Positions 26,221 through 40,100 of a DNA stretch of 64,000 nucleotides are shown one piece after another. Origin of the DNA: Acidobacteriota bacterium (GTDB lineage Bacteria; Acidobacteriota; Thermoanaerobaculia; Multivoradales; JAHZIX01); assembly GCA_039191605.1 (NCBI GenBank), contig JBCCXL010000017.1:19457-83456 (forward strand). The letters are read 5' to 3'. How positions within the stretch are numbered: position 1 is the stretch's first letter; every line of letters starts with the position of its first letter. The position numbers and the translations under genes were made by a program. The notes beneath the pieces are model-generated. The model did no database searches and was not told where the DNA came from. It saw only the letters and a program-made list of their open reading frames with translations.

Positions 26221-26290
26221 CTGGCCATGCTGAGACTGGCCATGCTGAAACTGGCCATTCTGAAACTGGCCATTCTGAAACTGGCAACCT
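26221..26290. repeat. 15-bp tandem direct repeat, about 4.5 copies (ctggccatgctgaaa), intergenic
   Basis: Read directly. It also generates a spurious antisense ORF beginning MPVSEWPVSEWPVSAWPVSAWP. Confidence 0.9.
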
Positions 26291-27200: not shown

Positions 27201-27603
27201 GGGAAGTCTCCTTGAGGGATTTTCTATGAGAAGGACCAGGGCCTAAGGAAAGATGTAGGGGTGCGACACTTTGCGGTCTGTCGTCGATTCAAATCAGTTG
27301 GCTGGTAGCCGAGAGCAGCCTTAGGAGGCTAAGCTCAACGCGAGTTCTGCCGTGGTGACTCGACTCACCTTGGCTCAGCTATTTATCATTATCTGTGGAC
27401 GAAGCTCGAGGTTCCTTAGCAACTATCTACGGCGGGGAGGGCCTGAAGTTCGTCGCAGCTCTCACTGCTTACGAGCTTCGGCCGCTGGCTGCGGCTGTCG
27501 CAACCCATGCGGCGCCAACGTCCTCAATCGCGGCTCGGGCTCATTCTCGGTGCTTCGAAGCCCTTTGGGGTATCAGGAGTTTCCCGGACCCCGTTCCCGG
27601 GCC

Positions 27604-27642
27604 CTGAGCTCCCGGAGCCTGAGCTCCCGGAGCCTCACCTCC
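27604..27642. repeat. 15-bp tandem repeat x2 plus a partial copy (ctgagctcccggagc)
   Basis: Read directly. It lies upstream of the gene at 27680. Confidence 0.7.
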
Positions 27643-27679: not shown

Positions 27680-28546
27680 GTGACCCAGCCGTTGACTCCA
27701 GCCTCCCGCGATGGATTTCGCCGCACCGTGTTTTACAGCCTGATGGCCGGGATGACGCCGCTGATCCCGATTCCCTGGGTGGACGATCAGGTGCTGGGAT
27801 GGGTGCGCGCCCGCATGGTGCGGACCCAGGGCCGCAGCGCCGGCTACGAGATTGGAGATCGGGCGCAGGCGGCGCTCCTCGGCCAGGAGCGAATCGATGC
27901 CGTCGGTGGCTGCTTCGGGTGGATGTTGAGCCTGCCCTTTCGGGTGGTCTTCTATCTGCTGAAGAAGATCTTCAAAAAGCTGGTGTTGATCTTCACCCTG
28001 AAGGATTGCGTCGACGTCTTCTCGACGACCTTCCACGAGGGATACCTACTCACCCGAGCGATGGAGCGGCGAGTGGTGGCGCCGGAGGAGCTGGCGCCGC
28101 GGGCCGAGATCTATGCGGCGCGCCACCTGCGTTGGGCGGTGGCGGCGACCTGTGAGCAGGTTGATACTTCCCCGGTCCGCCGTCTGGTCAAAGGGGTCTT
28201 CGGCGGCTCCCGCCGCGTGCTGCTGCGCGGCGCTCGGCTCTTGGTAGTGCTGCGCAACCGTCTGCGGCGCCTTCCCCAGGAGCCGGATGCCGGCGGTGAT
28301 GGAGCTCGGGTAGGTGGCGTTGGGGCAGGTGGAGCCGCAGTGAGGGCTGGAACGGAAGAGGCTATCGCTGCCGCGGAGGCCGAGGAAGAGGGGCTCACCG
28401 GCGGTTTGGTGGATCGGCTGACCAAGGCGCTGAGCGAGGAAGGGGAATACCTCAAGCATCTCGACGAGGTCTTCCTCGAGCGCTGGTCTTTGGAGTCTGG
28501 GGGTGGGCGGCCTGGGGACGGGCGCGATTCGGGCGCGATGTCTTGA
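27680..28546 (+). CDS. hypothetical protein (hydrophobic N-terminal segment, G/A-rich C-terminus)
   Basis: ORF with coding-like composition. No recognisable motif. Confidence 0.4.
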   Translation: MTQPLTPASRDGFRRTVFYSLMAGMTPLIPIPWVDDQVLGWVRARMVRTQGRSAGYEIGDRAQAALLGQERIDAVGGCFGWMLSLPFRVVFYLLKKIFKKLVLIFTLKDCVDVFSTTFHEGYLLTRAMERRVVAPEELAPRAEIYAARHLRWAVAATCEQVDTSPVRRLVKGVFGGSRRVLLRGARLLVVLRNRLRRLPQEPDAGGDGARVGGVGAGGAAVRAGTEEAIAAAEAEEEGLTGGLVDRLTKALSEEGEYLKHLDEVFLERWSLESGGGRPGDGRDSGAMS

Positions 28547-28647: not shown

Positions 28648-29898
28648 TCAGGAATCCGCCTCCTGCCGGAGGGTGCCACCCGCCCCCAGGGAGCCTAGAA
28701 CCTTCTCCAACAGCGCCATTTCCTCCGCCGACGCCAGGCGCCAATGGCCGGTGTTGCGGCGGCGCTCGATGGCCGGCTGGGTGTAGCGTACCGAGGTCAC
28801 CAGCTTGCCTTCCTGGTTGAAGACGTGGGCTCGCCCCCGTTCGCCGAGGACCACCAGGGTTTGGCGACGGGTGTCGTAGAGAATGTCCTGACGCCCGGCG
28901 CGGTGAAGGTCCCGCAGCGCCATAGGGGTGGGGCGATCGCCCTGAAGATGCCGCTGCTGGGCATGCTCGGTGCGCCGGGAGCGGGCGCGGCGGGTGCGTT
29001 CCAGGCGGCGAGCGAGGCCGGCGAGGATCGCCTCGACCCGCTCGTCTAGGCGGCTGGCGGAGAGCCGCTTGCGGCGGGCTCCGAGGCTGTCCAAAGCCTT
29101 CTGAGCCCAGCGCAGGGCGCTGCCCCAGGGCAGGCGGCCGAGGCGCGTGTAGAGCTGCTCCAGGGATTCGTCCCCGAGGTTGGCGACGACGACGTTGAGG
29201 GTCATGCGCCGCCGTCGCTGTTGCTTACCGCCGCCTCGGGATGAGAGAGCCTGGAAGGTCACGCCGACAGACCCGAGGGTGCCGTCGGCGGCGGGAAGGC
29301 TGTACCAGCCGGCCATCACCTGGCCGTGGAGCCGGTAGCCGCTGTGGGGATCGTGGTATGCCTCGATGAGGTCGCGCATCAGCTCTTGCCCGGCGACAAC
29401 CCGGGTGAGGAAGCGAGAGGGAGTGGTGTAGAGGGCCTCGACTTCCGGATCCTGCCGCGCCAGCAGGTATTGGCCGAAGTCTTCGAAGCGAGGAATGCCG
29501 GTGCTGCCGTAGCCGGCGAAGATCTGGCGCGGGTCCAGCGGTCGGGAGTGGGCGCAGTCGGCGCTGGCGCAGCGCAGGCAATAGACCCGCCCCGGCTGGG
29601 CTACGGAGCGATGGGTGATGAGTGCCTGGAGGGCATTGTCGACGCTGTGCTGGAAGGCCTCTCGGGCCTTGGTGATGGAGTCCCCGCGACCGTCCAGGGG
29701 CAGGCTCCAGTCGAGATGAAGGGCGTCTCTCTGGGTCTCCAGCAAATGCCCCCAGGGGTGACTCTCGATGCGCTTGCGGGCCTGGCGGGAGAGCTCTTCG
29801 AGGGCGGCGGTGAGGGCGTCCCGGGGAGGGCCTGAATTCTGCCGCGAGTTGCCGTCTCCGGATGGGGCAGGGGTTGGTCGAGGTCTGTGACGCTTCAT
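28648..29898 (-). CDS. hypothetical protein, Arg-rich
   Basis: Start trimmed to MKRHRPRPTP. No recognisable domain. Confidence 0.4.
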   Translation of the reverse strand: MKRHRPRPTPAPSGDGNSRQNSGPPRDALTAALEELSRQARKRIESHPWGHLLETQRDALHLDWSLPLDGRGDSITKAREAFQHSVDNALQALITHRSVAQPGRVYCLRCASADCAHSRPLDPRQIFAGYGSTGIPRFEDFGQYLLARQDPEVEALYTTPSRFLTRVVAGQELMRDLIEAYHDPHSGYRLHGQVMAGWYSLPAADGTLGSVGVTFQALSSRGGGKQQRRRRMTLNVVVANLGDESLEQLYTRLGRLPWGSALRWAQKALDSLGARRKRLSASRLDERVEAILAGLARRLERTRRARSRRTEHAQQRHLQGDRPTPMALRDLHRAGRQDILYDTRRQTLVVLGERGRAHVFNQEGKLVTSVRYTQPAIERRRNTGHWRLASAEEMALLEKVLGSLGAGGTLRQEADS

Positions 29899-30240
29899 GG
29901 CAGCTGCGATGGGGATACAGGGGGAAGCCTGCGGAGGTGGAAGAAGCTTCCTGGGAGTCTCCACCGTGAAGCGGTGGATGGATTCCTCCGGGTGACTCCC
30001 GAGGGCTAGACCAGTGTACCGCCTGAGCTTCTCGCGGAGCCGGCTCGGGAGCCTTACGGAGGGTCGCGAGAGGAGCCTGAAACCTTCGGATCTTCCTCCT
30101 CGTTGTCCTCTATATCCCCCTGCTGGTATTCGCTGGCGTCGGGGCGGAGGATGAGCGCGCCGTCGCCGACCTGAGGATCGGGAGAGTAGCGGCGAGGTAC
30201 AATAGAAAGGTCGGCTCGGCCGACGACACTTCCCGCTGAA

Positions 30241-30349
30241 GATCACAGCGATCTGAAGATCGCGGCGTTTGAAGATTGCGGCATTCGAAGATCATCGCGT
30301 CTGAAGAGCACCGCGTCTAAAGAGCATCACGTCTGAAGATCACCGCATA
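30241..30349. repeat. 16-bp tandem direct repeat, about 6.8 copies (tgaagatcgcggcgtt and variants)
   Basis: Read directly. It lies 75 bp upstream of the SPFH gene start. Confidence 0.9.
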
Positions 30350-30424
30350 GAGCGCGACCGCCGCCGCGTCCGCCCCGCGAACCCGGTGGCACCCAGCGCT
30401 GAACCCCCCTACGGAGGATTCAAT

Positions 30425-31615
30425 ATGGGCCTGATGGATAAGCTCCGCGCCGAGCTCATCGACATCATCGAGTGGATCGATGATTCGCAGCACACCTTGG
30501 TTTGGCGATTCCCTCGCTACCACAACCAGATCAAGAACGGCGCTCAGCTCATCGTGCGTCCGGGGCAGAAGGCGATCTTCGTCGATCGCGGACAGATCGC
30601 CGATGTTTTCGACCCGGGGCAATATCAGCTCACCACCGCCAATCTGCCGATCCTCAGCACCCTTCAGGGATGGAAGTACGGCTTCGAGAGCCCGTTCAAA
30701 TGCGAGGTGTACTTCATCTCCACTCGACAGCTGACGGATTTGAAGTGGGGCACCCCGAATCCCATCATGATGCGGGATGCGGACTTCGGGCCGATCCGCA
30801 TTCGCGCCTTCGGTACTTACGCCCTGAAGGCGGTGGAGCCCAAAGCGCTGCTGGAGCAGCTGGTGGGGACGGACGGCAATTTCGAGGCCGACGAGCTCAG
30901 CGAGCTGATGCGTTCGATGATCACCTCCAGCTTCGCGGATCTGCTGGGGGAGTCCCAGATCGCCGCCCTGGATCTGGCAGCCCGCTACAGCGAGCTCTCC
31001 GAGAGTCTGCGGCGCAAGGTGCTGGAGCGGGTGGATGACGAGTACGGTCTAGATGTAACCCAGCTCTTCATCGTTAACATCTCCCTGCCGGAAGAGGTGG
31101 AGAAGGCCCTCGATACCCGCACCAGCATGGGGGTGATCGGGGACATGAACCGCTTCCAGCAGTATCAGATGGGGCAGGCGATGACCGCCGCCGCCAACAA
31201 TCCCTCCGGCGGTGGCGCTGCGGAGGGCATGGGCCTGGGCATGGGCTTCGCCATGGCCAGTCAGATGATGGGGCAGATGCCTCAGGCCGGCGCTGCCGGC
31301 GCTGGTGGTTTCCCTCAGGCCGGGGGAGCGGCTCCGCCGCCGGTGGCTCCGCCGCCCCAATGGCACGTGGTCTCCGGTGGCCAATCCGCGGGGCCCTTCA
31401 CTCCGCAGCAGGTGGTGCAGGGCATCGGGGCGGGGCAGGTGAATCCCCAGACCCTGGTTTGGACCGCCGGGATGGGGCAGTGGACCCCTGCGGGGCAGGT
31501 GCCGCAGCTGGCGGGCTACTTCCGCAGCGCTCCGCCGCCAGCTCCGCCGTCGCCGCCGACCCCACCGGCCGGTGGCGGTGCTGTCGGTGGCGGAACGGTG
31601 GGCGGAAGCGAGTAA
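30425..31615 (+). CDS. SPFH/band-7 domain protein with Gly/Pro-rich linker and C-terminal GYF-like (DUF4339-type) domain
   Basis: MGLMDKLRAELIDIIEW...QLIVRPGQKAIFVDRGQI matches the SPFH family (annotated in databases as virion core protein-like). The C-terminal WHVVSGGQSAGPFTPQQV...LVWTAGMGQWTPAGQVPQL is GYF-like. A GGAGGA RBS is present. Confidence 0.7.
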   Translation: MGLMDKLRAELIDIIEWIDDSQHTLVWRFPRYHNQIKNGAQLIVRPGQKAIFVDRGQIADVFDPGQYQLTTANLPILSTLQGWKYGFESPFKCEVYFISTRQLTDLKWGTPNPIMMRDADFGPIRIRAFGTYALKAVEPKALLEQLVGTDGNFEADELSELMRSMITSSFADLLGESQIAALDLAARYSELSESLRRKVLERVDDEYGLDVTQLFIVNISLPEEVEKALDTRTSMGVIGDMNRFQQYQMGQAMTAAANNPSGGGAAEGMGLGMGFAMASQMMGQMPQAGAAGAGGFPQAGGAAPPPVAPPPQWHVVSGGQSAGPFTPQQVVQGIGAGQVNPQTLVWTAGMGQWTPAGQVPQLAGYFRSAPPPAPPSPPTPPAGGGAVGGGTVGGSE

Positions 31616-31619
31616 AGGG

Positions 31620-32786
31620 ATGAGCGCTCCCAGCGCTCCCGCTGCCGCGGCGGATGTCGCGGCGGCAGATGTGACGCAGAGCGAAGCGGTCCCCCGGCCC
31701 TCCATCGAGAAGGGGCGGGGGCATATCTTTCCCTGCGAATCCTGCGGCGCCGACCTGGAATTCCACATCGGGCAGCAGCAGCTGCGCTGCCCCTTCTGTG
31801 GCTTTTCCAAGGAGCTGGTGTTTGGCGAAGAGGAGAGCATCGACGAGCAGGACTTCAGCGCCATGCTGGAGCGGCTCGTGGAGCTGCGGCGGGAGAAGGG
31901 GACGGGGGAAGAGAGCCTCAAAGCGCAGGAGGTGGATTGCGCCTCCTGCGGCGCGAAGGTGGAGTTCACCGGCACTCTGACCTCTACCCGATGTCCCTAT
32001 TGCGGCTCGCCGATTCAGCGCGAGGGGGTGCACCGCACCAGCTCGCGGATCCCGGTGGATGGCGTGGTGCCCTTCCGCATCGAGAAGCGCCGCGCTCAAT
32101 CCAATCTCAAGCGCTGGGTGGGGAAGCTGTGGTTTGCTCCCAACGCCTTTAAGAAGGCGGGGATCGACGGCAAGTTCGACGGCGTTTACCTGCCCTATTG
32201 GACCTTCGATTCGATGACCTTCACCCGCTATCGCGGCAAGCGGGGAGAGCATTATTACGTCACCGTCGGCACCGGCAAGAACCGCACTCGCACCCGCCGC
32301 ACCCGCTGGTATCCGGCTTCCGGTCGCTTCCAGCTCTTCTTCGACGATGTACTCTCGGTGGCCCACACGGCGCTGCCGGAGAACCTGATTCGGGCGCTGG
32401 AGCCGTGGCCGCTGGAGGAAGCCAAGCCCTTCCACGAGGACATCTTGGCGGGGCATACCGCCCGCACCTACGACATTCCGCTGGATCGCGGCTTCGAGGA
32501 TGGCCGGCAGCGCATCGATGAAGCGCTGCGGGAGCAGGTGCGCACCCGAATCGGCGGTGACACTCAGCGTATCGACGACATCGACACCCATTACGACGCC
32601 ATCACCTACAAGCACATGCTGCTGCCGGTGTGGCTGTTGTCCTACCGCTACAGCGGCAAGGTCTACCAGGTGGTGGTGAACGCCGCCACTGGGGAAGTGC
32701 AGGGGGAGCGCCCCTACAGCATGTGGAAGATCGCCTTCACCGGGTTGGCGGTGCTGATGCTGGTCTTCTTGATCCTGTCGGTCTGA
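31620..32786 (+). CDS. double zinc-ribbon protein with C-terminal TM anchor
   Basis: Two zinc-ribbon pairs: CESCGA...CPFCG and CASCGA...CPYCG. A conserved roughly 250-aa domain follows, then a terminal TM helix (IAFTGLAVLMLVFLILSV). The start lies 5 nt after the SPFH stop. Confidence 0.6.
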   Translation: MSAPSAPAAAADVAAADVTQSEAVPRPSIEKGRGHIFPCESCGADLEFHIGQQQLRCPFCGFSKELVFGEEESIDEQDFSAMLERLVELRREKGTGEESLKAQEVDCASCGAKVEFTGTLTSTRCPYCGSPIQREGVHRTSSRIPVDGVVPFRIEKRRAQSNLKRWVGKLWFAPNAFKKAGIDGKFDGVYLPYWTFDSMTFTRYRGKRGEHYYVTVGTGKNRTRTRRTRWYPASGRFQLFFDDVLSVAHTALPENLIRALEPWPLEEAKPFHEDILAGHTARTYDIPLDRGFEDGRQRIDEALREQVRTRIGGDTQRIDDIDTHYDAITYKHMLLPVWLLSYRYSGKVYQVVVNAATGEVQGERPYSMWKIAFTGLAVLMLVFLILSV

Positions 32787-32926: not shown

Positions 32927-35227
32927 TCAGCTGGGGGGGAGGACGGGCTTCAGGGTCTCGCCGTCATCTTGCAGCAGCAGGAGGTGGAAGCCGCGGCGGG
33001 AGCTCATGCGCACGAAGCCCTCGTAGCCGGTGAAGGTCTCCTCGAAGAACCAGCCGCCTTCCTGTTTGGCGGTGATCTCCTTGTAGGCCTGCAGCACCTC
33101 CGGCGAGAAGTCCGGAGCGATGAGCAGGGCGCCGCCGATGTCGCCGGTTTTGACCCGGGCGGTCTTGGCGCGGACCACTTTGTCGCAGAAGTCCTGCAGT
33201 CCCTGCGGATCCAGGTAGCCGCAATAGTCCGCCACGTGGAGCACCTTGCCCTTCTCGTCGAAGGTCACCAGATCGAAGGAGTCGGAGCGGGCGTCGTCGG
33301 TGGGGTGCGGCAGGGTGTGATGCAGCAGCGCGCGACGAACCAGGAAGATCCAGGCGACGAGATATTTCCAGCTGCGATCCTTGTCCCTCTCGTGGAAGTA
33401 GGACGGTAGCTCCTTCAGCAGGTAGTCGAGGAATCGGTAGACCGGATCCGTCGGCAGCAGGCCGGAGCGCATCGCCGCGGTGAGGCCTTCGCCGAGGTGG
33501 GGGGTGATGCGGAAAGAGAGCACCCGCTGAATGCCGCCGGTCTGCTTGAGCAGGGCGAGCACCTTGGAGGTGGTCGACGCGGTGGCCCCGAGGTCGGTGT
33601 TGCCGGAGAGGCTCACCGGCTCGACTTCCAGCTCCACGTCCTCGAGGCGCTGGCGCAGGGAGATGAGCAGAGGCTGGGTGTGACGCTCCTCGACCCAGGC
33701 GCGAACGGCGACGTCGGAGACCCACTCCTGCCAGGGCTGATCGAGGGCCACGTCGCTCCAATCTCCGGCGTAGAGGGTGAGCACGATTCGGCCGCGATCG
33801 AAGAGCAGGTAGCCGCAGCCCTCGCCGCGGCGCAGCCGCATCTGCCCCGAGAAGCTCTCGTTGGCCAGCTTGTCCGCCAGCGCCGGAAGATGGGTGTAGG
33901 AAGAATCGAGATCCGCATGACGAGCAGGGCCAGGGCTCAGGAGCGACGCCAGGTTCTGCATTACCCCGGTGGGGATGGAGTCCGGCAGCGGGTGCAGAAC
34001 GGGCTCGGAGATCTGCGAGAGACGGGCGGTGGCGGCGTTGCCGGTGAGGCTGGGATCGGTGGTGTCCACCGCGCCGATGATCAGGCCTCCCTCCACCAGC
34101 AGGCAGACGGAATCGACGAAGGCGGCCCCGGCGTAATAGGGAGCGTTGAGGGGCTGTTCCTGAAGTCTCTGCAGCAGCTGATCGGTGGATTGGCGATCGA
34201 GGCGCCGCTCCGGCCAGTTCTTGACGATCTCCAGCACCATGGCGCCGCGGTCCCCCGGCAGGTTGAGCACCATCGGGGTGGTCTTGGTGAGATCCGTTTG
34301 ATCCGTGGTGACCGTTCCGCCCCCCGCCGGAGGCAGGGTCTCGAGGCGCAGGGTCTGGCCGGGGCCGGTGCTGGCATCGCACAGCGGGCGCAGGGCGTCG
34401 GCCATCTCCCGGGCGTTCTCGTAGCGCTCCTTGCGGTCTTTCTTCAGCGCCCGGTGGAGCACTGCCTGCAGTGCGGCAGGCACGTCCGGCAGGTGATCCT
34501 CCAGCGGTCTCGCCGGCTCCCGCAGGATGGCGTTGGCGACCTCCATGAAGCTCTTGCCGTCGAAGGGGTAATGACCGGTGAGCACGTGGAAGAGCAGCAC
34601 GCCGCTGGCGAAGAGGTCCGAGCGACCGTCGATATCTTCTGCCCGCAGCTGCTCCGGGCTGGCGAATTTAGGCGTCGCCAACACCAGGCCCGCCTGGGTC
34701 TGCACCAGATCCGAGCCCTGCACGTGGGCAATTCCGAAATCGGTGACCTTGAGTCGGCCCTCGCCGACGATCATCAGATTGGAGGGCTTGATGTCGCGGT
34801 GGATTACGCCGCTGCGGTGGGCGAGATCCAGCGCCTCGAGAAGGTCCACGATCACTCGGCAGGCGCGGGGAATGTCCAGCGGTCCGCGCTTCTCGAGGAT
34901 CTCCTCCAAAGTAAGTCCATCGAGCCATTCCATGGCGATGTAGGGAACGCCGTCCTCTTCGCCGATGCCATAGATAGTGGCGACGCCGGGGTGAGCGAGG
35001 GCCGCGGCGGCTCTCGCCTCCTGGAGAAATCGCTTGCGCGCCTCCTCCGCCACTTTCGGCTGCTGGCTTTCGAGCAGGTGGGGGCGCAGGGCCTTGATCG
35101 CCACTCGGCGCTTGAGCAGAGGCTCCTCAGCGCGGAAGACGAGGCCCATGGCTCCTTCGCCGATCTGGGCATCGATGCGGTAGGGGAAGGTGCGGGTCGG
35201 GGTCTTGGGGGGCGGAAATTGCGTCAT
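32927..35227 (-). CDS. Ser/Thr protein kinase with large C-terminal domain of unknown function
   Basis: GEGAMGLVFRA...VAIK, HRDIKPSNLMI, VTDFGIA and SPEQ are Hanks kinase subdomains I-VIII. Confidence 0.85.
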   Translation of the reverse strand: MTQFPPPKTPTRTFPYRIDAQIGEGAMGLVFRAEEPLLKRRVAIKALRPHLLESQQPKVAEEARKRFLQEARAAAALAHPGVATIYGIGEEDGVPYIAMEWLDGLTLEEILEKRGPLDIPRACRVIVDLLEALDLAHRSGVIHRDIKPSNLMIVGEGRLKVTDFGIAHVQGSDLVQTQAGLVLATPKFASPEQLRAEDIDGRSDLFASGVLLFHVLTGHYPFDGKSFMEVANAILREPARPLEDHLPDVPAALQAVLHRALKKDRKERYENAREMADALRPLCDASTGPGQTLRLETLPPAGGGTVTTDQTDLTKTTPMVLNLPGDRGAMVLEIVKNWPERRLDRQSTDQLLQRLQEQPLNAPYYAGAAFVDSVCLLVEGGLIIGAVDTTDPSLTGNAATARLSQISEPVLHPLPDSIPTGVMQNLASLLSPGPARHADLDSSYTHLPALADKLANESFSGQMRLRRGEGCGYLLFDRGRIVLTLYAGDWSDVALDQPWQEWVSDVAVRAWVEERHTQPLLISLRQRLEDVELEVEPVSLSGNTDLGATASTTSKVLALLKQTGGIQRVLSFRITPHLGEGLTAAMRSGLLPTDPVYRFLDYLLKELPSYFHERDKDRSWKYLVAWIFLVRRALLHHTLPHPTDDARSDSFDLVTFDEKGKVLHVADYCGYLDPQGLQDFCDKVVRAKTARVKTGDIGGALLIAPDFSPEVLQAYKEITAKQEGGWFFEETFTGYEGFVRMSSRRGFHLLLLQDDGETLKPVLPPS

Positions 35228-35603: not shown

Positions 35604-38600
35604 GTGGCGACAATCCCGGGACCCTCAGCGGATCCGTCCTCAGCGGTGGAAGAGCTCGATCCTGAAGATCGAGGCGAGGAGAGGAGTGCGTCCACAGAGG
35701 CGGAGGATGCCGGCTGGCGCCGGGTTAGCGCGCAGCTAGAGGCGGTCATCGATCAGCTCGATGGTCTGCGCGGAGAGGTCTCCACCCTGCGGCGCAGGCT
35801 CGACGTGCTGGAGGAGCAGAGAGAGGCGCAAGGAGCGGCGGACTCTGCCCTCGAAGGTGTTGCGGCCCAGGGCTCCGCCACGGTTGTCTCGACGGGCGAA
35901 CCTTCGGCCGATGGCGATTCCCTGGCGACGGTGACCAACGAGGCGGCCAGCCTTGAGACCGTCGGCATTGATACGGCCAGTGCGGAGAGGACCAGCGCTG
36001 ATTTAACCGGTGCTGATTTAGCCAGTCTTGGGGCAGCCGATGCGGAGACCGTCAACGGCGAGACCTCGAGCCCCGACGGAGCCGTAGAGGACGGGCAGCA
36101 GGAAGGGAAACCCTCCAAGGGACGGATGGCGGAAGCGGTGGCCGCGGCGCGAAAACGCGTGGTGGCGGCGGCGCCGTCGCCGCCGCCGGAGCGGGCCCAG
36201 GCGCTGGAGACCACCATCGGCGCGGTGTGGTTCAGTCGAGTCGGCCTGGCGCTGTTGATGGTCTTCTTCGCTCTCTTTGCGCGCTGGGTGGTGCCGGCTC
36301 TCTCGCCGGCCCTACGGGTCACCGCCAGCTACCTGGCGGCGGTGCTGCTGGGCTTTGTCGGCCTGCGTCTCTCGCAGCGCCTTCCGACCTTCGGTCGCTC
36401 GGTAGTAGCGGGGGGGCTGGCGGTGGCCTTCTTCACCTCCTTCGCCGCTCATTTCGTTCCCCCCATGGCCTGTCTGCCGCTGGTGGCCTCACTGCTCTTG
36501 ATGGCGGCCTTCGTGGTCGCTCTCTTGATCTGCGCGGAGCAATGGGACGCCCCGGGGATCGCAGGCCTGGCGCTCACTTTGGGCTACGTCGCCGCCTTTG
36601 TCGCCAGCTACGACGCCGAGATCTTTTCCATGGCGGCCATCGTCTTCCTCGCCGCCGCGGCGGTGGGGTTGGTGGTGCGCCACGACTGGCTTCCCCTGGG
36701 CTTCTACTCGGTTCTCGCTACCTTCAGCTTCAACCTGCTGACCTGGTTGGCGAACCCCGCCTTGGCGGCGAACGAGGACCGCTTCGCCCTCAATCTCGCC
36801 GCCCTGACGGCGTATTACCTGCTCTACGTCTCCGTCGATCTGGTGTTCCATCATCGCCTGGCGCGGCGCGGGATCGCCGCCTTCCCGCAGCGAGATCGGG
36901 TCGCCGGGCGCTGCATCGGAGCGACGGCGGTGGCCGCCTTCGGCGTGCAGGGGGTGCTGCTCTTCCACTCCATCCCCAGCCATTGGCAGCAGGTTCACCT
37001 CTTCCTCGCCGCCGCGGCCCTCTTCCAGCTGGTGCTCACGGTCGTTCACCGCATCTTCGACGGTGGGGAGCGCATGCTGCACCTCACTTCGGCGGTGACC
37101 TTCGTCACCCTCGCGCTCTTCGCTTCGGTGGGGGGGCTGGCCCTCAACATGGCGCTGGCGGCGGAGGCGCTGCTGCTGCTGGTCCTCGGCAGGACCACCG
37201 GAAATTGGTTCCTGCGGCCTTTGTCCCAGAGCGTCTTGGTGGTGAATTTCTTCCACTTCTGGTTCTCCGAGGCGCGGGAGGTCAACAGCTGGCCCCTCTT
37301 CCTCGGGGCGGTGGTGATGGCCTCGGTGTACTTCGTCAAATCCCACCACAACGACACCTGGGCGCCGGTGCCGGACGAGGCGCGCTTTTCGCCGGTGGGG
37401 GGCTTCTCCCGCTGGTGGCGCAAGGCCTACGGCCGCGCCAGCACGCCCATCGCCTATTGGCAGACCCTCTCCGGCGCGGCGCTGATCTCCTATCAATGTG
37501 ACCTCTTTCTGGCCGCTCCCTACAACGCGCTGATGTTGGTGGGGCTGGCGGCCATTACCTTCGCCGCCGGGATCGCATTTCATAGCGCGCCGATTCTGCA
37601 GGGCGTGGCGCTGATGCAGATCTCCGCCGCCATTCTGCTCCTGCGCCAGCTCATCGAGGCGCCGGCCCGATGGCCTTCGTGGACCCGGGAAGTGAACCAG
37701 GGGGTGGTACTGGCCCTCGCCCTCCTCGCCCTGGCGGCGGTTTGGGTCGCCCGGCATCGCCATCGCCGCACCTATATGCGCTTCGCCAGCGCGGCCTTGC
37801 TGGCCACCGGCCTCGGGGCCTTGGGGGCCGGGCTGACCCCCGCGGTGGCGAGCCACCGCCTTCTGGCCCTCGGCCTGCCGGCGGTGGTGGCGGTGGTGAT
37901 GTGGATCTCCATCGAGATCTGGCCTTCGGCGCCGCGGCCGGTGGCGGAGCTGTCCCGCCGCCTGGCTCGCTTCTATCGCGGCACCCGCCGCCGCCGCGCC
38001 GTATTTGCCGCCTTTGCGGCGACCGCACCCTTCGCTTCGGCGGGAGCGGTGCTGGAGCCCTTCTCCGCCCTCGCCTGGCTCTCCCTCTGGGGACTTGCCC
38101 TCGCCGCTGCGGCGCTGGTTCGCGGCAGCGCCTATCTGCTGCTCGGCGTGCTGATTCATCAGCTGGTCTCCGGGGCCCTGGTGATCTTCCACCTCTCCAC
38201 CGGATCCGCCGCCCACAACCTGCTGAAGTGGTGGGTGGTGACGGCGATGGTGGTGGTGGCGGCGGCCCTCTTCCATCGTGCCGGAGCGGTGCGTCGGGCC
38301 TCCTTCGGGGTGGTGGGCTTCGTGGTCTTCTTCGAGAGCCTGCTGATCCTCGCCATCACCGCCGTGGCTCCGGAGCAGCGATTCGACCCGGTGTGGATCT
38401 GGGCGCTGCCGCTGGCGGGGCTGTGGTGGGTGATCGAAGCGCTGCGGGCCTGCCCGGTGCGCTGTCCGGTGACCACCAGCTCCTGGCAGGACCGCTGGGG
38501 GAGCCGCTGGCTGCCCCGCTGGTGCCACCCCGGCGCCGGGGTGGGATCGATCCTCACCGCGGCGGTGCTGGGCTGCATCCTGGGCCGTGCTCTGCCCACC

Positions 38601-40100
38601 GCCGCCGAGGCTCTGGGAGCGATGGCGCTGGCGGCTCTGCTGCTGCTGGCGGCGACGGTATTGCGCAGCAGCCCCTACCTGATGGCCGGTCTGCTGACTC
38701 TCCTCGGGCTGATGCTGGGGCACCGCACCCTTTACCTCGGCGACCTCAGCGGCGGCACTCTGCTGGAATGGACCACGGTGTCGACGCCGGTGCTGGCCGC
38801 CGCCGCTCTGCTCTGGGCGGCGCCGCGGTGGCGCCGGGGGTCCTTCTTCTGGGGCGGCCTGGTGGCCCTCACCCTCGGCCTGGTGGCCCTCGCTCAGCTG
38901 ATCTTCGAGGCGCCCACCGGGGGAGCGCCGCGCTGGCTGTGGGGCCTGAGCTTCGCCGCCTGCTGGCTGGCTTTGGAGCAGCTGCAGCGGGGCGTGGTGG
39001 CGGCTTCGGAGGGCGCCACGGCGGACTGGCGGGACGAGCTGGATCTTCGCCGGCTGCTGCAATGTGGCCGCGGACTGGCGGTGGCGCTGTCGGCGGTGAC
39101 GGCCCTGCTGCTGGTGGCGATGACCTGGCGTCAGGTGCCGGATCCCATCGTGATGGTCTCGGTGGTGCTGGCCTACGCGATCTTCTTTGTCGCTTTGACC
39201 GCGTGGTGGAAGAGCCCGCCCCTGGCGGCGGCCTTCGCGGTGTGCTTGCTGGTAGTCCATCCGCTGATTTACTGGCGGGTGGGTGCACGGGATGCGGCGG
39301 GGGAATCGCCGCTGCTGGCGGCGGCGGTGCTGGTGGTGACGCTGGTGGCGGGGGCGGCGGTGGAGGCGATCTTCCGCGCCCAGGAGGTCGCCGGTCAGCG
39401 GCGTCCCGCCTGGTGGGGGGCTTGGTATCCCTACGCCTCTGGCTTTGCTCTTTCCGCCTTGGTGCTGGCGGCGATGGGGGAGGAATTCTTCGGCGCGCCG
39501 GCCTACGCAACCCCTCTTCAGCTGGTGCCGGCGGTCCTCGCCCTGGCGGCGGCCCTACGCTTCGAGCTGCGATGGCTGGCGCGGGCTAGTCTGCTCTACG
39601 CAGCGCTGATGGTCCTCGCCCAAGCGGTGCTGGCGGCGTGGCTGCCGGCGTGGCGGGCGGAGCTCGCCCATGCGACCTTGTTCACCCTCGCCCTGCTGGT
39701 GCTGATGGAGCGCCTGGTGGCTTGGGTGCCCGCGGAGCGACTCTCCGAGGGGCAGCGAGCCTTGGCCTTGACCTATCGCTGGGGTTTGGTAGCTGGGGGC
39801 GGAGTACTGGCGGCGTGGTGCTTCTCCTGGGCAGAGGAGGTCGGTGGCCTGTGGGCGACCGCCAGCTGGAGCCTGCTGGCCCTGTTGTGGATGGGGCTGG
39901 GCTTTGCCTGGCGCAGCGTAGAGTACCGGCGGGTGGCGCTGGTTCTCTTCTTCGCCGCGATCCTTCGCCTCTTCTTCCTCGATGTCCCGAGGCTGGATCT
40001 GATTTACAGCATGATGGCCTTTCTCTGCCTGGGAGTGACCATGGTTCTCGCTTCGTACCTCTACAACCGCTACCGAGAAGAGATCGGACGATGGTTATGA
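35604..40100 (+). CDS. giant polytopic membrane protein (DUF2339-like). It has an N-terminal coiled coil followed by more than 30 predicted TM helices.
   Basis: Coiled coil: LEAVIDQLDGLRGEVSTLRRRLDVLEEQ. Hydrophobic helices then run for about 1300 aa. Confidence 0.6.
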   Translation: MATIPGPSADPSSAVEELDPEDRGEERSASTEAEDAGWRRVSAQLEAVIDQLDGLRGEVSTLRRRLDVLEEQREAQGAADSALEGVAAQGSATVVSTGEPSADGDSLATVTNEAASLETVGIDTASAERTSADLTGADLASLGAADAETVNGETSSPDGAVEDGQQEGKPSKGRMAEAVAAARKRVVAAAPSPPPERAQALETTIGAVWFSRVGLALLMVFFALFARWVVPALSPALRVTASYLAAVLLGFVGLRLSQRLPTFGRSVVAGGLAVAFFTSFAAHFVPPMACLPLVASLLLMAAFVVALLICAEQWDAPGIAGLALTLGYVAAFVASYDAEIFSMAAIVFLAAAAVGLVVRHDWLPLGFYSVLATFSFNLLTWLANPALAANEDRFALNLAALTAYYLLYVSVDLVFHHRLARRGIAAFPQRDRVAGRCIGATAVAAFGVQGVLLFHSIPSHWQQVHLFLAAAALFQLVLTVVHRIFDGGERMLHLTSAVTFVTLALFASVGGLALNMALAAEALLLLVLGRTTGNWFLRPLSQSVLVVNFFHFWFSEAREVNSWPLFLGAVVMASVYFVKSHHNDTWAPVPDEARFSPVGGFSRWWRKAYGRASTPIAYWQTLSGAALISYQCDLFLAAPYNALMLVGLAAITFAAGIAFHSAPILQGVALMQISAAILLLRQLIEAPARWPSWTREVNQGVVLALALLALAAVWVARHRHRRTYMRFASAALLATGLGALGAGLTPAVASHRLLALGLPAVVAVVMWISIEIWPSAPRPVAELSRRLARFYRGTRRRRAVFAAFAATAPFASAGAVLEPFSALAWLSLWGLALAAAALVRGSAYLLLGVLIHQLVSGALVIFHLSTGSAAHNLLKWWVVTAMVVVAAALFHRAGAVRRASFGVVGFVVFFESLLILAITAVAPEQRFDPVWIWALPLAGLWWVIEALRACPVRCPVTTSSWQDRWGSRWLPRWCHPGAGVGSILTAAVLGCILGRALPTAAEALGAMALAALLLLAATVLRSSPYLMAGLLTLLGLMLGHRTLYLGDLSGGTLLEWTTVSTPVLAAAALLWAAPRWRRGSFFWGGLVALTLGLVALAQLIFEAPTGGAPRWLWGLSFAACWLALEQLQRGVVAASEGATADWRDELDLRRLLQCGRGLAVALSAVTALLLVAMTWRQVPDPIVMVSVVLAYAIFFVALTAWWKSPPLAAAFAVCLLVVHPLIYWRVGARDAAGESPLLAAAVLVVTLVAGAAVEAIFRAQEVAGQRRPAWWGAWYPYASGFALSALVLAAMGEEFFGAPAYATPLQLVPAVLALAAALRFELRWLARASLLYAALMVLAQAVLAAWLPAWRAELAHATLFTLALLVLMERLVAWVPAERLSEGQRALALTYRWGLVAGGGVLAAWCFSWAEEVGGLWATASWSLLALLWMGLGFAWRSVEYRRVALVLFFAAILRLFFLDVPRLDLIYSMMAFLCLGVTMVLASYLYNRYREEIGRWL

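Follow-up and report, generated by a model that had tools for sequence, protein, structure and literature searches.

In Bacillus subtilis, the zinc-ribbon protein YdjG, the SPFH protein YdjI and the TPM protein YdjH (also named SamG, SamI and SamH) act together under envelope stress to recruit the ESCRT-III protein PspA to the membrane. YdjI is a soluble protein that is required for the recruitment of PspA, and removal of ydjG or of ydjH abolishes the membrane foci of both YdjI and PspA (PMC8581546). Two-hybrid contacts were reported between YdjG and YdjH, YdjH and YdjI, YdjH and PspA, and YdjI and PspA (PMC8581546). The ydj operon is induced via sigma-W by alkaline stress and by infection with phage SPP1 (PMC8581546, PMC9239133, PMC11153139). 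According to a 2026 preprint, SamI restrains signalling by SamG and SamH, and PspA is dispensable for those phenotypes (bioRxiv 10.64898/2026.02.06.704340). The Sam/YdjGHI module has so far been regarded as a Firmicute feature tied to PspA. Here we describe a pair of adjacent genes in a 64,000-nucleotide (nt) stretch of the Acidobacteriota contig JBCCXL010000017.1 (hereafter, the window), the first encoding an SPFH protein (gene 1) and the second a zinc-ribbon protein (gene 2). By sequence comparison these are homologues of SamI (YdjI) and SamG (YdjG), respectively, and the pair is a stripped-down variant of this partly studied system, with a different domain in the tail of the SPFH protein.

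Gene 1 (30425..31615, + strand) encodes a soluble SPFH protein of 396 amino acids (aa) that is assigned to the YdjI/SamI (Band_7_1) family by Pfam, BLASTP and hydropathy. Gene 2 (31620..32786, + strand) encodes a tail-anchored double-zinc-ribbon protein of 388 aa, assigned to the YdjG/SamG family by BLASTP to YdjG. The same two products appear in the list of open reading frames (ORFs) and in gene calls made independently for the source contig: the ATG of gene 1 is at 30425 and its stop ends at 31615, while the ATG of gene 2 is at 31620 and its stop ends at 32786. The two genes lie on the same strand, and the 4-nt gap between them is the one that the sequence-only reading of this DNA had given. 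An upstream GTG (30386) is an alternative start for gene 1; we prefer the ATG, because a Shine-Dalgarno sequence read directly from the DNA (GGAGG, 30413..30417, + strand) is placed 7 nt 5' of it, and the independent gene call agrees. A scan for sigma-70 promoters and intrinsic terminators around the pair was uninformative.

The Bacillus reference loci were found with the published ydjG primer sequence in species-representative genomes, which gave the pspA-ydjGHI locus of four species of the B. subtilis group. The locus of B. stercoris encodes PspA, YdjG (341 aa), YdjH (253 aa) and YdjI (323 aa); in Pfam, YdjH is a TPM-domain protein and the C-terminal tail of YdjI is a Zn_ribbon_3. Gene 2 aligns with YdjG almost end to end (residues 37-386 against 5-337 of 341; BLASTP E 6e-34), and tblastn in the reverse direction returns the same match at E 4e-32. 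The alignment spans both zinc ribbons, the body motifs VIPF, YIPFW, LLPVWM.SY and NGQTGKV.G, and the C-terminal transmembrane (TM) helix. Gene 2 is a full-length YdjG homologue and not the fragment of a known enzyme that the sequence-only reading had allowed for. Gene 1 aligns with YdjI from the SPFH domain into the Gly/Met linker, with 31% identity over 311 aa (BLASTP E 2e-45). The likeness to the Bacillus system extends to architecture. Like SamI, gene 1 has a Band_7_1 SPFH domain, no membrane anchor, a Gly/Met linker and, at the C-terminus, a small adaptor domain; like SamG, gene 2 has two zinc ribbons at the N-terminus, a body that may be YpeB/PepSY-like and a TM helix at the C-terminus; and in both systems the genes sit in a single operon. 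The differences lie in content, order and tail. Neither pspA nor a TPM gene (samH) was detected in the operon or elsewhere in the 64-kb window; the SPFH gene precedes the zinc-ribbon gene, whereas the Bacillus order is zinc ribbon, TPM, SPFH; and gene 1 has a GYF_2 tail between polyproline tracts where SamI has a zinc ribbon. Among the Pfam matches of the window genes that were scanned (about 4.7-57.6 kb) there is no PspA or TPM family.

The pair is found widely outside this genome. Co-occurrence was studied in 80 metagenome loci that contain close relatives of gene 2, of which 57 were testable, having enough upstream sequence. A Band_7_1+GYF gene is located upstream and on the same strand in 37 of the 57. 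Plasmid and chromid records gave 12 matches, and all five that were inspected, from four phyla, have the SPFH gene directly upstream. The SPFH partners in the Tsukamurella, Vibrio coralliilyticus and Paracoccus loci carry a GYF_2 tail, the one in the Comamonas locus an HTH_17 tail, and in Enterococcus gallinarum an SPFH gene with a double-zinc-ribbon tail is followed by a YdjG-like gene and then by a TPM gene. Reverse look-up from three SPFH-GYF orthologues recovered the order SPFH, zinc ribbon in three of four loci, with the YdjG-like gene directly downstream of SPFH-GYF in a Phycisphaeraceae genome and in another Acidobacteriota metagenome-assembled genome (MAG). Five records of a phage collection match both proteins, on one strand and a short distance apart, the SPFH gene being upstream; either gene occurs in only 8-9 of the 50,697 phage records. 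Acidobacteriota, Planctomycetota, Alpha-, Beta- and Gammaproteobacteria, Actinomycetota and Bacillota all have loci with this order, which makes at least seven lineages. Such pairing far exceeds what chance would give, and the linkage is strong and cross-phylum without being obligatory. The earlier proposal of a conserved two-gene module is borne out by these counts.

The linkage bears on the simplest alternative, namely that two unrelated, uncoupled genes merely happen to be neighbours in this lineage. Two observations speak in its favor. No SPFH gene is present within 6 kb of the zinc-ribbon gene in 20 of the 57 testable loci, and one SPFH-GYF orthologue, 77% identical in the SPFH core (L093:5001-11122), belongs to a different operon, which it heads and in which AdoMet (S-adenosylmethionine) decarboxylase, DUF4178, DUF350, spermine synthase and amine oxidase genes, and no YdjG-like gene, come after it. 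The two proteins are therefore not obligate neighbours. But the order is repeated, with short gaps between the genes and unrelated flanks each time, in the seven or more lineages named above, and the B. subtilis homologues depend on each other for localisation (PMC8581546). Because of the cross-phylum linkage we regard incidental adjacency as effectively refuted, and its probability as close to nil. The operon headed by the 77%-identical orthologue is of the polyamine-linked PspA type described by Ravi et al. (2024, PMC11237479), where band-7 proteins take the place of the CesT/Tir-PspA dyad. Gene 1 differs in being outside such an operon, and the band-7 protein of that paper has 2TM and SHOCT domains, not a GYF domain (PMC11237479).

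The core of gene 1 is an SPFH (Band_7_1) domain at residues 26-237 (30500..31135, + strand) that covers the full Pfam profile PF13421, positions 1-211 of 211, with E 6e-101 and 336.8 bits against a cut-off of 24. The gene calls for the source contig likewise list Band_7_1, Band_7 and GYF_2 in this product. No 19-residue Kyte-Doolittle window reaches 1.6, and the protein accordingly has no hydrophobic segment. A low-complexity linker rich in Gly, Met and Ala (residues ~262-303; 31208..31333, + strand, read from the sequence) follows, and a linker of this kind is present in every SPFH tail variant, Bacillus YdjI included. Next come a first proline tract, PPPVAPPP (31334..31357, + strand), directly before the GYF domain; the GYF_2 domain itself (residues 313-362; 31361..31510, + strand; PF14237, E 3e-18); and, near the C-terminus, a second proline tract, PPPAPPSPPTPP (31532..31567, + strand). 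Both tracts are delineated by sequence conservation. The GYF domain also matches the solved GYF domain of GltJ (PDB 7z3c, E 1e-6) and is the confident part of the tail in the AlphaFold2 (AF2) model, with predicted local distance difference test (pLDDT) values of 84-90; the linker and the proline tracts are disordered, and the SPFH region has pLDDT values mostly of 62-86, with one dip to 49. The tail has no cysteines, GYF_2 standing in place of the C-terminal zinc-ribbon motif of YdjI. In agreement with these matches, the SPFH core, low-complexity linker and GYF-like tail that had been read from the letters alone were correctly named.

The tail of gene 1 is well conserved within its own type. 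Among the 120 closest orthologues listed, all are Band_7_1+GYF_2 proteins, with 69-77% identity. All 36 full-length orthologues from the metagenome loci have one layout (Gly/Met linker, polyproline, GYF, C-terminal polyproline), and the Vibrio, Paracoccus and Tsukamurella SPFH proteins are laid out in the same way. The first proline tract is kept in these 36 and in the Vibrio, Paracoccus and Tsukamurella partners, and the C-terminal tract in every GYF-tailed orthologue examined. Across the Band_7_1 family as a whole the tail type differs, and Pfam recognizes GYF_2, DZR, HTH_17 and zinc-ribbon tails.

Gene 2 begins with two Cys4 zinc ribbons, the first formed by C39, C42, C57 and C60 (31734..31799, + strand) and the second by C107, C110, C125 and C128 (31938..32003, + strand). 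All eight cysteines are invariant across an alignment of 41 homologues, and the ribbons align with ribbons 1 and 2 of YdjG. The Pfam zinc-ribbon matches of gene 2 are all sub-threshold, those of the second ribbon being weak and of RpoP/DZR type, and a search of PDB sequences returned RpoP-type zinc ribbons only. The ribbons are followed by a conserved body (residues ~145-365; 32052..32714, + strand) that is weakly PepSY/YpeB-like; no Pfam or NCBIfam family covers residues ~140-365 (~220 aa). The protein ends in a TM helix at residues 368-387, one residue before the stop (32721..32780, + strand). The only Kyte-Doolittle window of gene 2 above the threshold is 366-388, AF2 places a helix at 368-387, and the C-terminal TM segment is conserved in all homologues, YdjG included. 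With this topology, the ribbons and the body are predicted to be cytoplasmic. Neither an NfeD nor a peptidase family is matched by gene 2 in Pfam or NCBIfam. The double ribbon, the uncharacterised body, the terminal TM helix and the statement that the partner is not a protease had all been anticipated, and they hold.

The gene 2 family is large: clustered at 50% identity, it has 6835 representatives at E <=1e-3 and 855 at <=1e-30. Its members are poorly labelled: an exact match to gene 2 in an Acidobacteriota MAG is annotated "hypothetical", and other entries bear the misleading or uninformative labels "rubrerythrin", "RPC12/RpoP", "DUF1610" and "TFIIB-type zinc ribbon", in line with the mis-annotation that the sequence-only reading had remarked on. 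The proline-containing N-terminus of gene 2 was considered as a ligand for the GYF domain of gene 1 and was rejected. This extension varies, with a PP motif in only 54 of 120 homologues, and it is absent in the Paracoccus and Vibrio zinc-ribbon proteins despite their GYF-tailed partners.

We propose, with moderate confidence, that the pair is the conserved core of the SamI/SamG membrane-stress module, in which an anchor, a scaffold and an adaptor are combined. The two genes would form a translationally coupled operon. The gene 2 protein would hold its ribbons and its weakly PepSY/YpeB-like body at the inner face of the membrane by means of the C-terminal helix, and would dock the anchorless SPFH protein there. 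Once docked, the SPFH protein would oligomerise as a scaffold beneath the membrane, and its flexible tail (Gly/Met linker, polyproline, GYF, polyproline) would act as the adaptor, either by cross-linking adjacent subunits through GYF-polyproline contacts or by recruiting a proline-rich client. The Bacillus counterpart of such a client would be PspA. A direct contact of the SamI-SamG type is favoured because the dyad is widespread in loci that have no TPM gene, and the variation of the SPFH tail between lineages likewise suggests that what is conserved at the core is the SamI-SamG contact. For this organism we only infer that the two proteins bind directly without YdjH/TPM, what the GYF domain binds and which stress would trigger the module.

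Several observations weigh against this proposal, in addition to the 20 loci and the polyamine-type operon in which the partners are apart. The identity to the Bacillus proteins is just 25-31%. The two-hybrid work reported no direct contact between YdjG and YdjI in B. subtilis (PMC8581546), and the window locus is without YdjH/TPM, the Bacillus protein that bound both of them, so direct docking is putative. The AF2 model of gene 1 shows no confident contact between the GYF domain and the polyproline tracts. Searches by tblastn with Bacillus PspA, a single-sequence query of limited sensitivity, and with the Bacillus and Enterococcus TPM proteins found neither protein, whether in the window or among the 80 related loci. 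As no pspA or TPM gene was detected within the 64-kb window, a link to PspA is conjecture here.

The dispensability of PspA in the preprint is also where the main rival to our anchor-scaffold-adaptor model finds its footing. In that rival the logic is reversed: the membrane zinc-ribbon protein is the one that signals, for instance as a membrane-tethered factor whose ribbons contact a regulator or nucleic acid; the SPFH protein restrains it, as a brake, until the membrane is perturbed; and the output is transcriptional or physiological reprogramming and not repair by an effector. The genetics in Bacillus speak for it: the phenotypes of a samI deletion are reported to be suppressed when samH is deleted as well, and the authors regard SamI as a restraint on SamGH signalling (bioRxiv 10.64898/2026.02.06.704340). 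Ribbon 1 of YdjG matches the TFIIB-type Zn_Ribbon_TF family, the SPFH partner in Comamonas ends in an HTH_17 domain, and the dyad is widespread without pspA. Yet the Bacillus suppressor is in the main the TPM protein SamH, for which this locus has no gene, and YdjG is not known to bind DNA or RNA. The ribbon matches of gene 2 all fall below the Pfam thresholds, and such ribbons are equally often protein-binding; a tail-anchored protein would, moreover, need to be released from the membrane to act on DNA. Taking the two sides together, we judge the signal-and-brake explanation to be rather unlikely.

What the GYF tail of the anchor-scaffold-adaptor model might bind is suggested by the ZnR-linker-GYF switch of Myxococcus xanthus GltJ. 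The GYF domain of GltJ, a bacterial one, uses a non-canonical surface to bind a proline-rich sequence, with an affinity in the micromolar range (PMC11135422). Since the GltJ domain binds such a sequence and since the tracts that flank the domain in gene 1 are conserved, these tracts are candidate GYF ligands, in cis or in trans; by analogy, the conserved prolines would be bound by the GYF domain, although this is an inference only. The two systems have in common a bacterial-type GYF_2 domain, zinc ribbons and flexible linkers at the inner membrane face. They differ in that the ribbon and the GYF domain of GltJ are on one polypeptide of the gliding motor, whereas here the GYF domain is on the SPFH protein and the ribbons are on its partner. 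There are also no MglA, AglZ or Glt genes near the pair, and the flanking polyproline tracts are only candidate ligands. A more far-reaching extension of the model, which we offer as a tentative and somewhat doubtful one, is that the dyad may be the ancestral, PspA-independent Sam core in most phyla, to which PspA and TPM would be Firmicute additions. The GYF domain would then bind the flanking polyproline either in trans, as a cross-link between subunits, or in cis, where it would keep an auto-inhibited switch closed until a proline-rich client is captured on opening.

Other SPFH systems provide a second comparison. HflK/C with FtsH, QmcA with YbbJ (SPFH-NfeD) and flotillin with YqiJ/YuaF all resemble the pair in having an SPFH scaffold gene beside a gene for a dedicated membrane partner, and the same logic would be expected of the pair, with an oligomeric SPFH assembly organising a membrane-associated client. 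Unlike in these systems, the SPFH protein here is soluble, and its partner is neither a protease nor of the NfeD or YqiJ type. In HflK/C and flotillin, a long coiled coil after the SPFH domain forms the wall of the cage. Gene 1 differs from both in having no long coiled coil at this position; its residues beyond ~260 are of low complexity.

The sequence-only reading had suggested a membrane-associated stress or defence module. The stress part of this suggestion is consistent with the homology to the Bacillus proteins; the defence part lacks support, with no meaningful PADLOC match and with housekeeping flanks. The defence explanation, an anti-phage or abortive-infection module whose SPFH scaffold and zinc-ribbon protein would detect infection at the membrane, has some points in its favour. 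The homologous operon of B. subtilis is induced by SPP1, and PspA becomes a conjugation target of the cyclase of a cyclic-oligonucleotide-based anti-phage signalling system (CBASS) (PMC11153139). Adjacent to the pair and convergent with gene 2 is a gene for a Ser/Thr protein kinase (32927-35227, - strand), with a C-terminal DUF7527 and a weak DUF4388 match, which matches the PD-T4-6 kinase profiles of PADLOC, although generic Hanks-type kinases match these profiles too. This kinase is not kept beside the pair: a kinase-domain match is near the pair in only one of the 80 metagenome loci, ~5 kb away, and the kinase is absent at the syntenic position in the closest relative (locus L094). Against PADLOC-DB 2.0, gene 1 has no match, and gene 2 has only matches of E 1e-4 to 7e-4 in its zinc-ribbon region. 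The neighbourhood is one of housekeeping genes (LigA, PFOR, glycogen phosphorylase, signal peptidase and CheA) and not a defence island. Identities of 69-77% between orthologues of gene 1 across phyla fit genes of core physiology better than defence genes, which tend to evolve fast, and the scarcity of homologues in phage records, noted above, points the same way. A role in defence is, in our estimate, very unlikely.

The other genes around the pair were considered as further members of the module and were rejected. The 416-aa gene, the Ser/Thr kinase, the DUF2339 gene and the 288-aa gene show conservation limited to one close Acidobacteriota relative; as the flanking genes are not conserved with the pair, the module consists of two genes. 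The two upstream genes, 28648-29898 (- strand, 416 aa) and 27680-28546 (+ strand, 288 aa), have no Pfam family; L094 has a homologue of each in the same position (48% and 40% identity, respectively), and neither was seen in other phyla. A multi-pass DUF2339 membrane protein of ~1480-1500 aa is encoded downstream, at 35604-40100 in the window and at 4902-8690 in L094. The convergent kinase gene lies between it and the pair in the window, while in L094 it comes directly after the pair on the same strand. DUF2339 was not seen beside the pair in other phyla, and its proximity is probably lineage synteny.

Upstream of gene 1, the 526-nt divergent intergenic region contains a 16-nt tandem repeat (consensus CTGAAGATCACCGCGT, 6.9 copies, 30236-30346) that lies ~80 nt 5' of the start of the gene. 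The motif is nearly restricted to its array, which holds five of its seven matches in the window at <=3 mismatches. The repeat is absent from the equivalent region of L094, and as it is not common to this closest relative we did not count it in the module. Other short arrays, of 15 nt, are found in nearby intergenic regions (26221-26285 and 27595-27642).

Some of the related loci depart from the simple two-gene arrangement. In some Planctomycetota-like loci an extra gene of ~220-250 aa is inserted between the SPFH-GYF and the YdjG-like genes (L027:1605-2306, L047:5244-5939 and, as three tandem copies, L066:3694-5720; also L030-L032). Its product has an N-terminal zinc ribbon and two Zn_ribbon_TFIIB (PF13453) domains, and the module may include it as a facultative third component. 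In L050 (5415-5949) the insertion between the two genes is a ParE-toxin/antitoxin pair (PF05016, PF09720); the gap in L062 has the same size (~740 nt), the toxin/antitoxin matches being from L050. Five of the loci with no SPFH gene within 6 kb (L056, L070, L073, L074 and L078) have an ORF of ~350 aa before the YdjG-like gene. The ORF of L056 matches T2SSF (type II secretion/type IV pilus protein F), and the N-termini of the other four resemble it, the Pfam match being from L056 alone. In Paracoccus ferrooxidans (L090:542-1717), genes for TelA (toxic anion resistance) and DUF2927 are directly upstream of the pair on the same strand, and together with the pair these may form a larger envelope-stress cluster.

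Both protein families, the Bacillus system and the architecture of YdjG (PMC11237479) are already known, and within a widespread GYF-tailed variant the window pair is an ordinary member. Calling the function of such pairs unknown, as the earlier reading did, is outdated now that YdjI/SamI and YdjG/SamG have been studied experimentally (PMC8581546; bioRxiv 10.64898/2026.02.06.704340). In the searchable literature we found no description of a cross-phylum dyad without PspA or TPM, of the variation of the SPFH tail between lineages, or of the conserved polyproline-GYF-polyproline layout. The body of the YdjG-like proteins defines a large family, of thousands of 50%-identity clusters, that is still without a Pfam model. 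For a module regarded as a Firmicute one, the comparison shows that in many lineages, Gram-negative and actinobacterial, its SPFH and zinc-ribbon components travel together, while the vicinity lacks pspA and TPM genes. Among these, Paracoccus, Vibrio and Comamonas are tractable species in which to study the contact between SamI and SamG. Binding of polyproline by the GYF domain is a concrete hypothesis for the SPFH tail and, if it is true, the GYF-tailed form would use a mechanism that has not been described for any SPFH protein.

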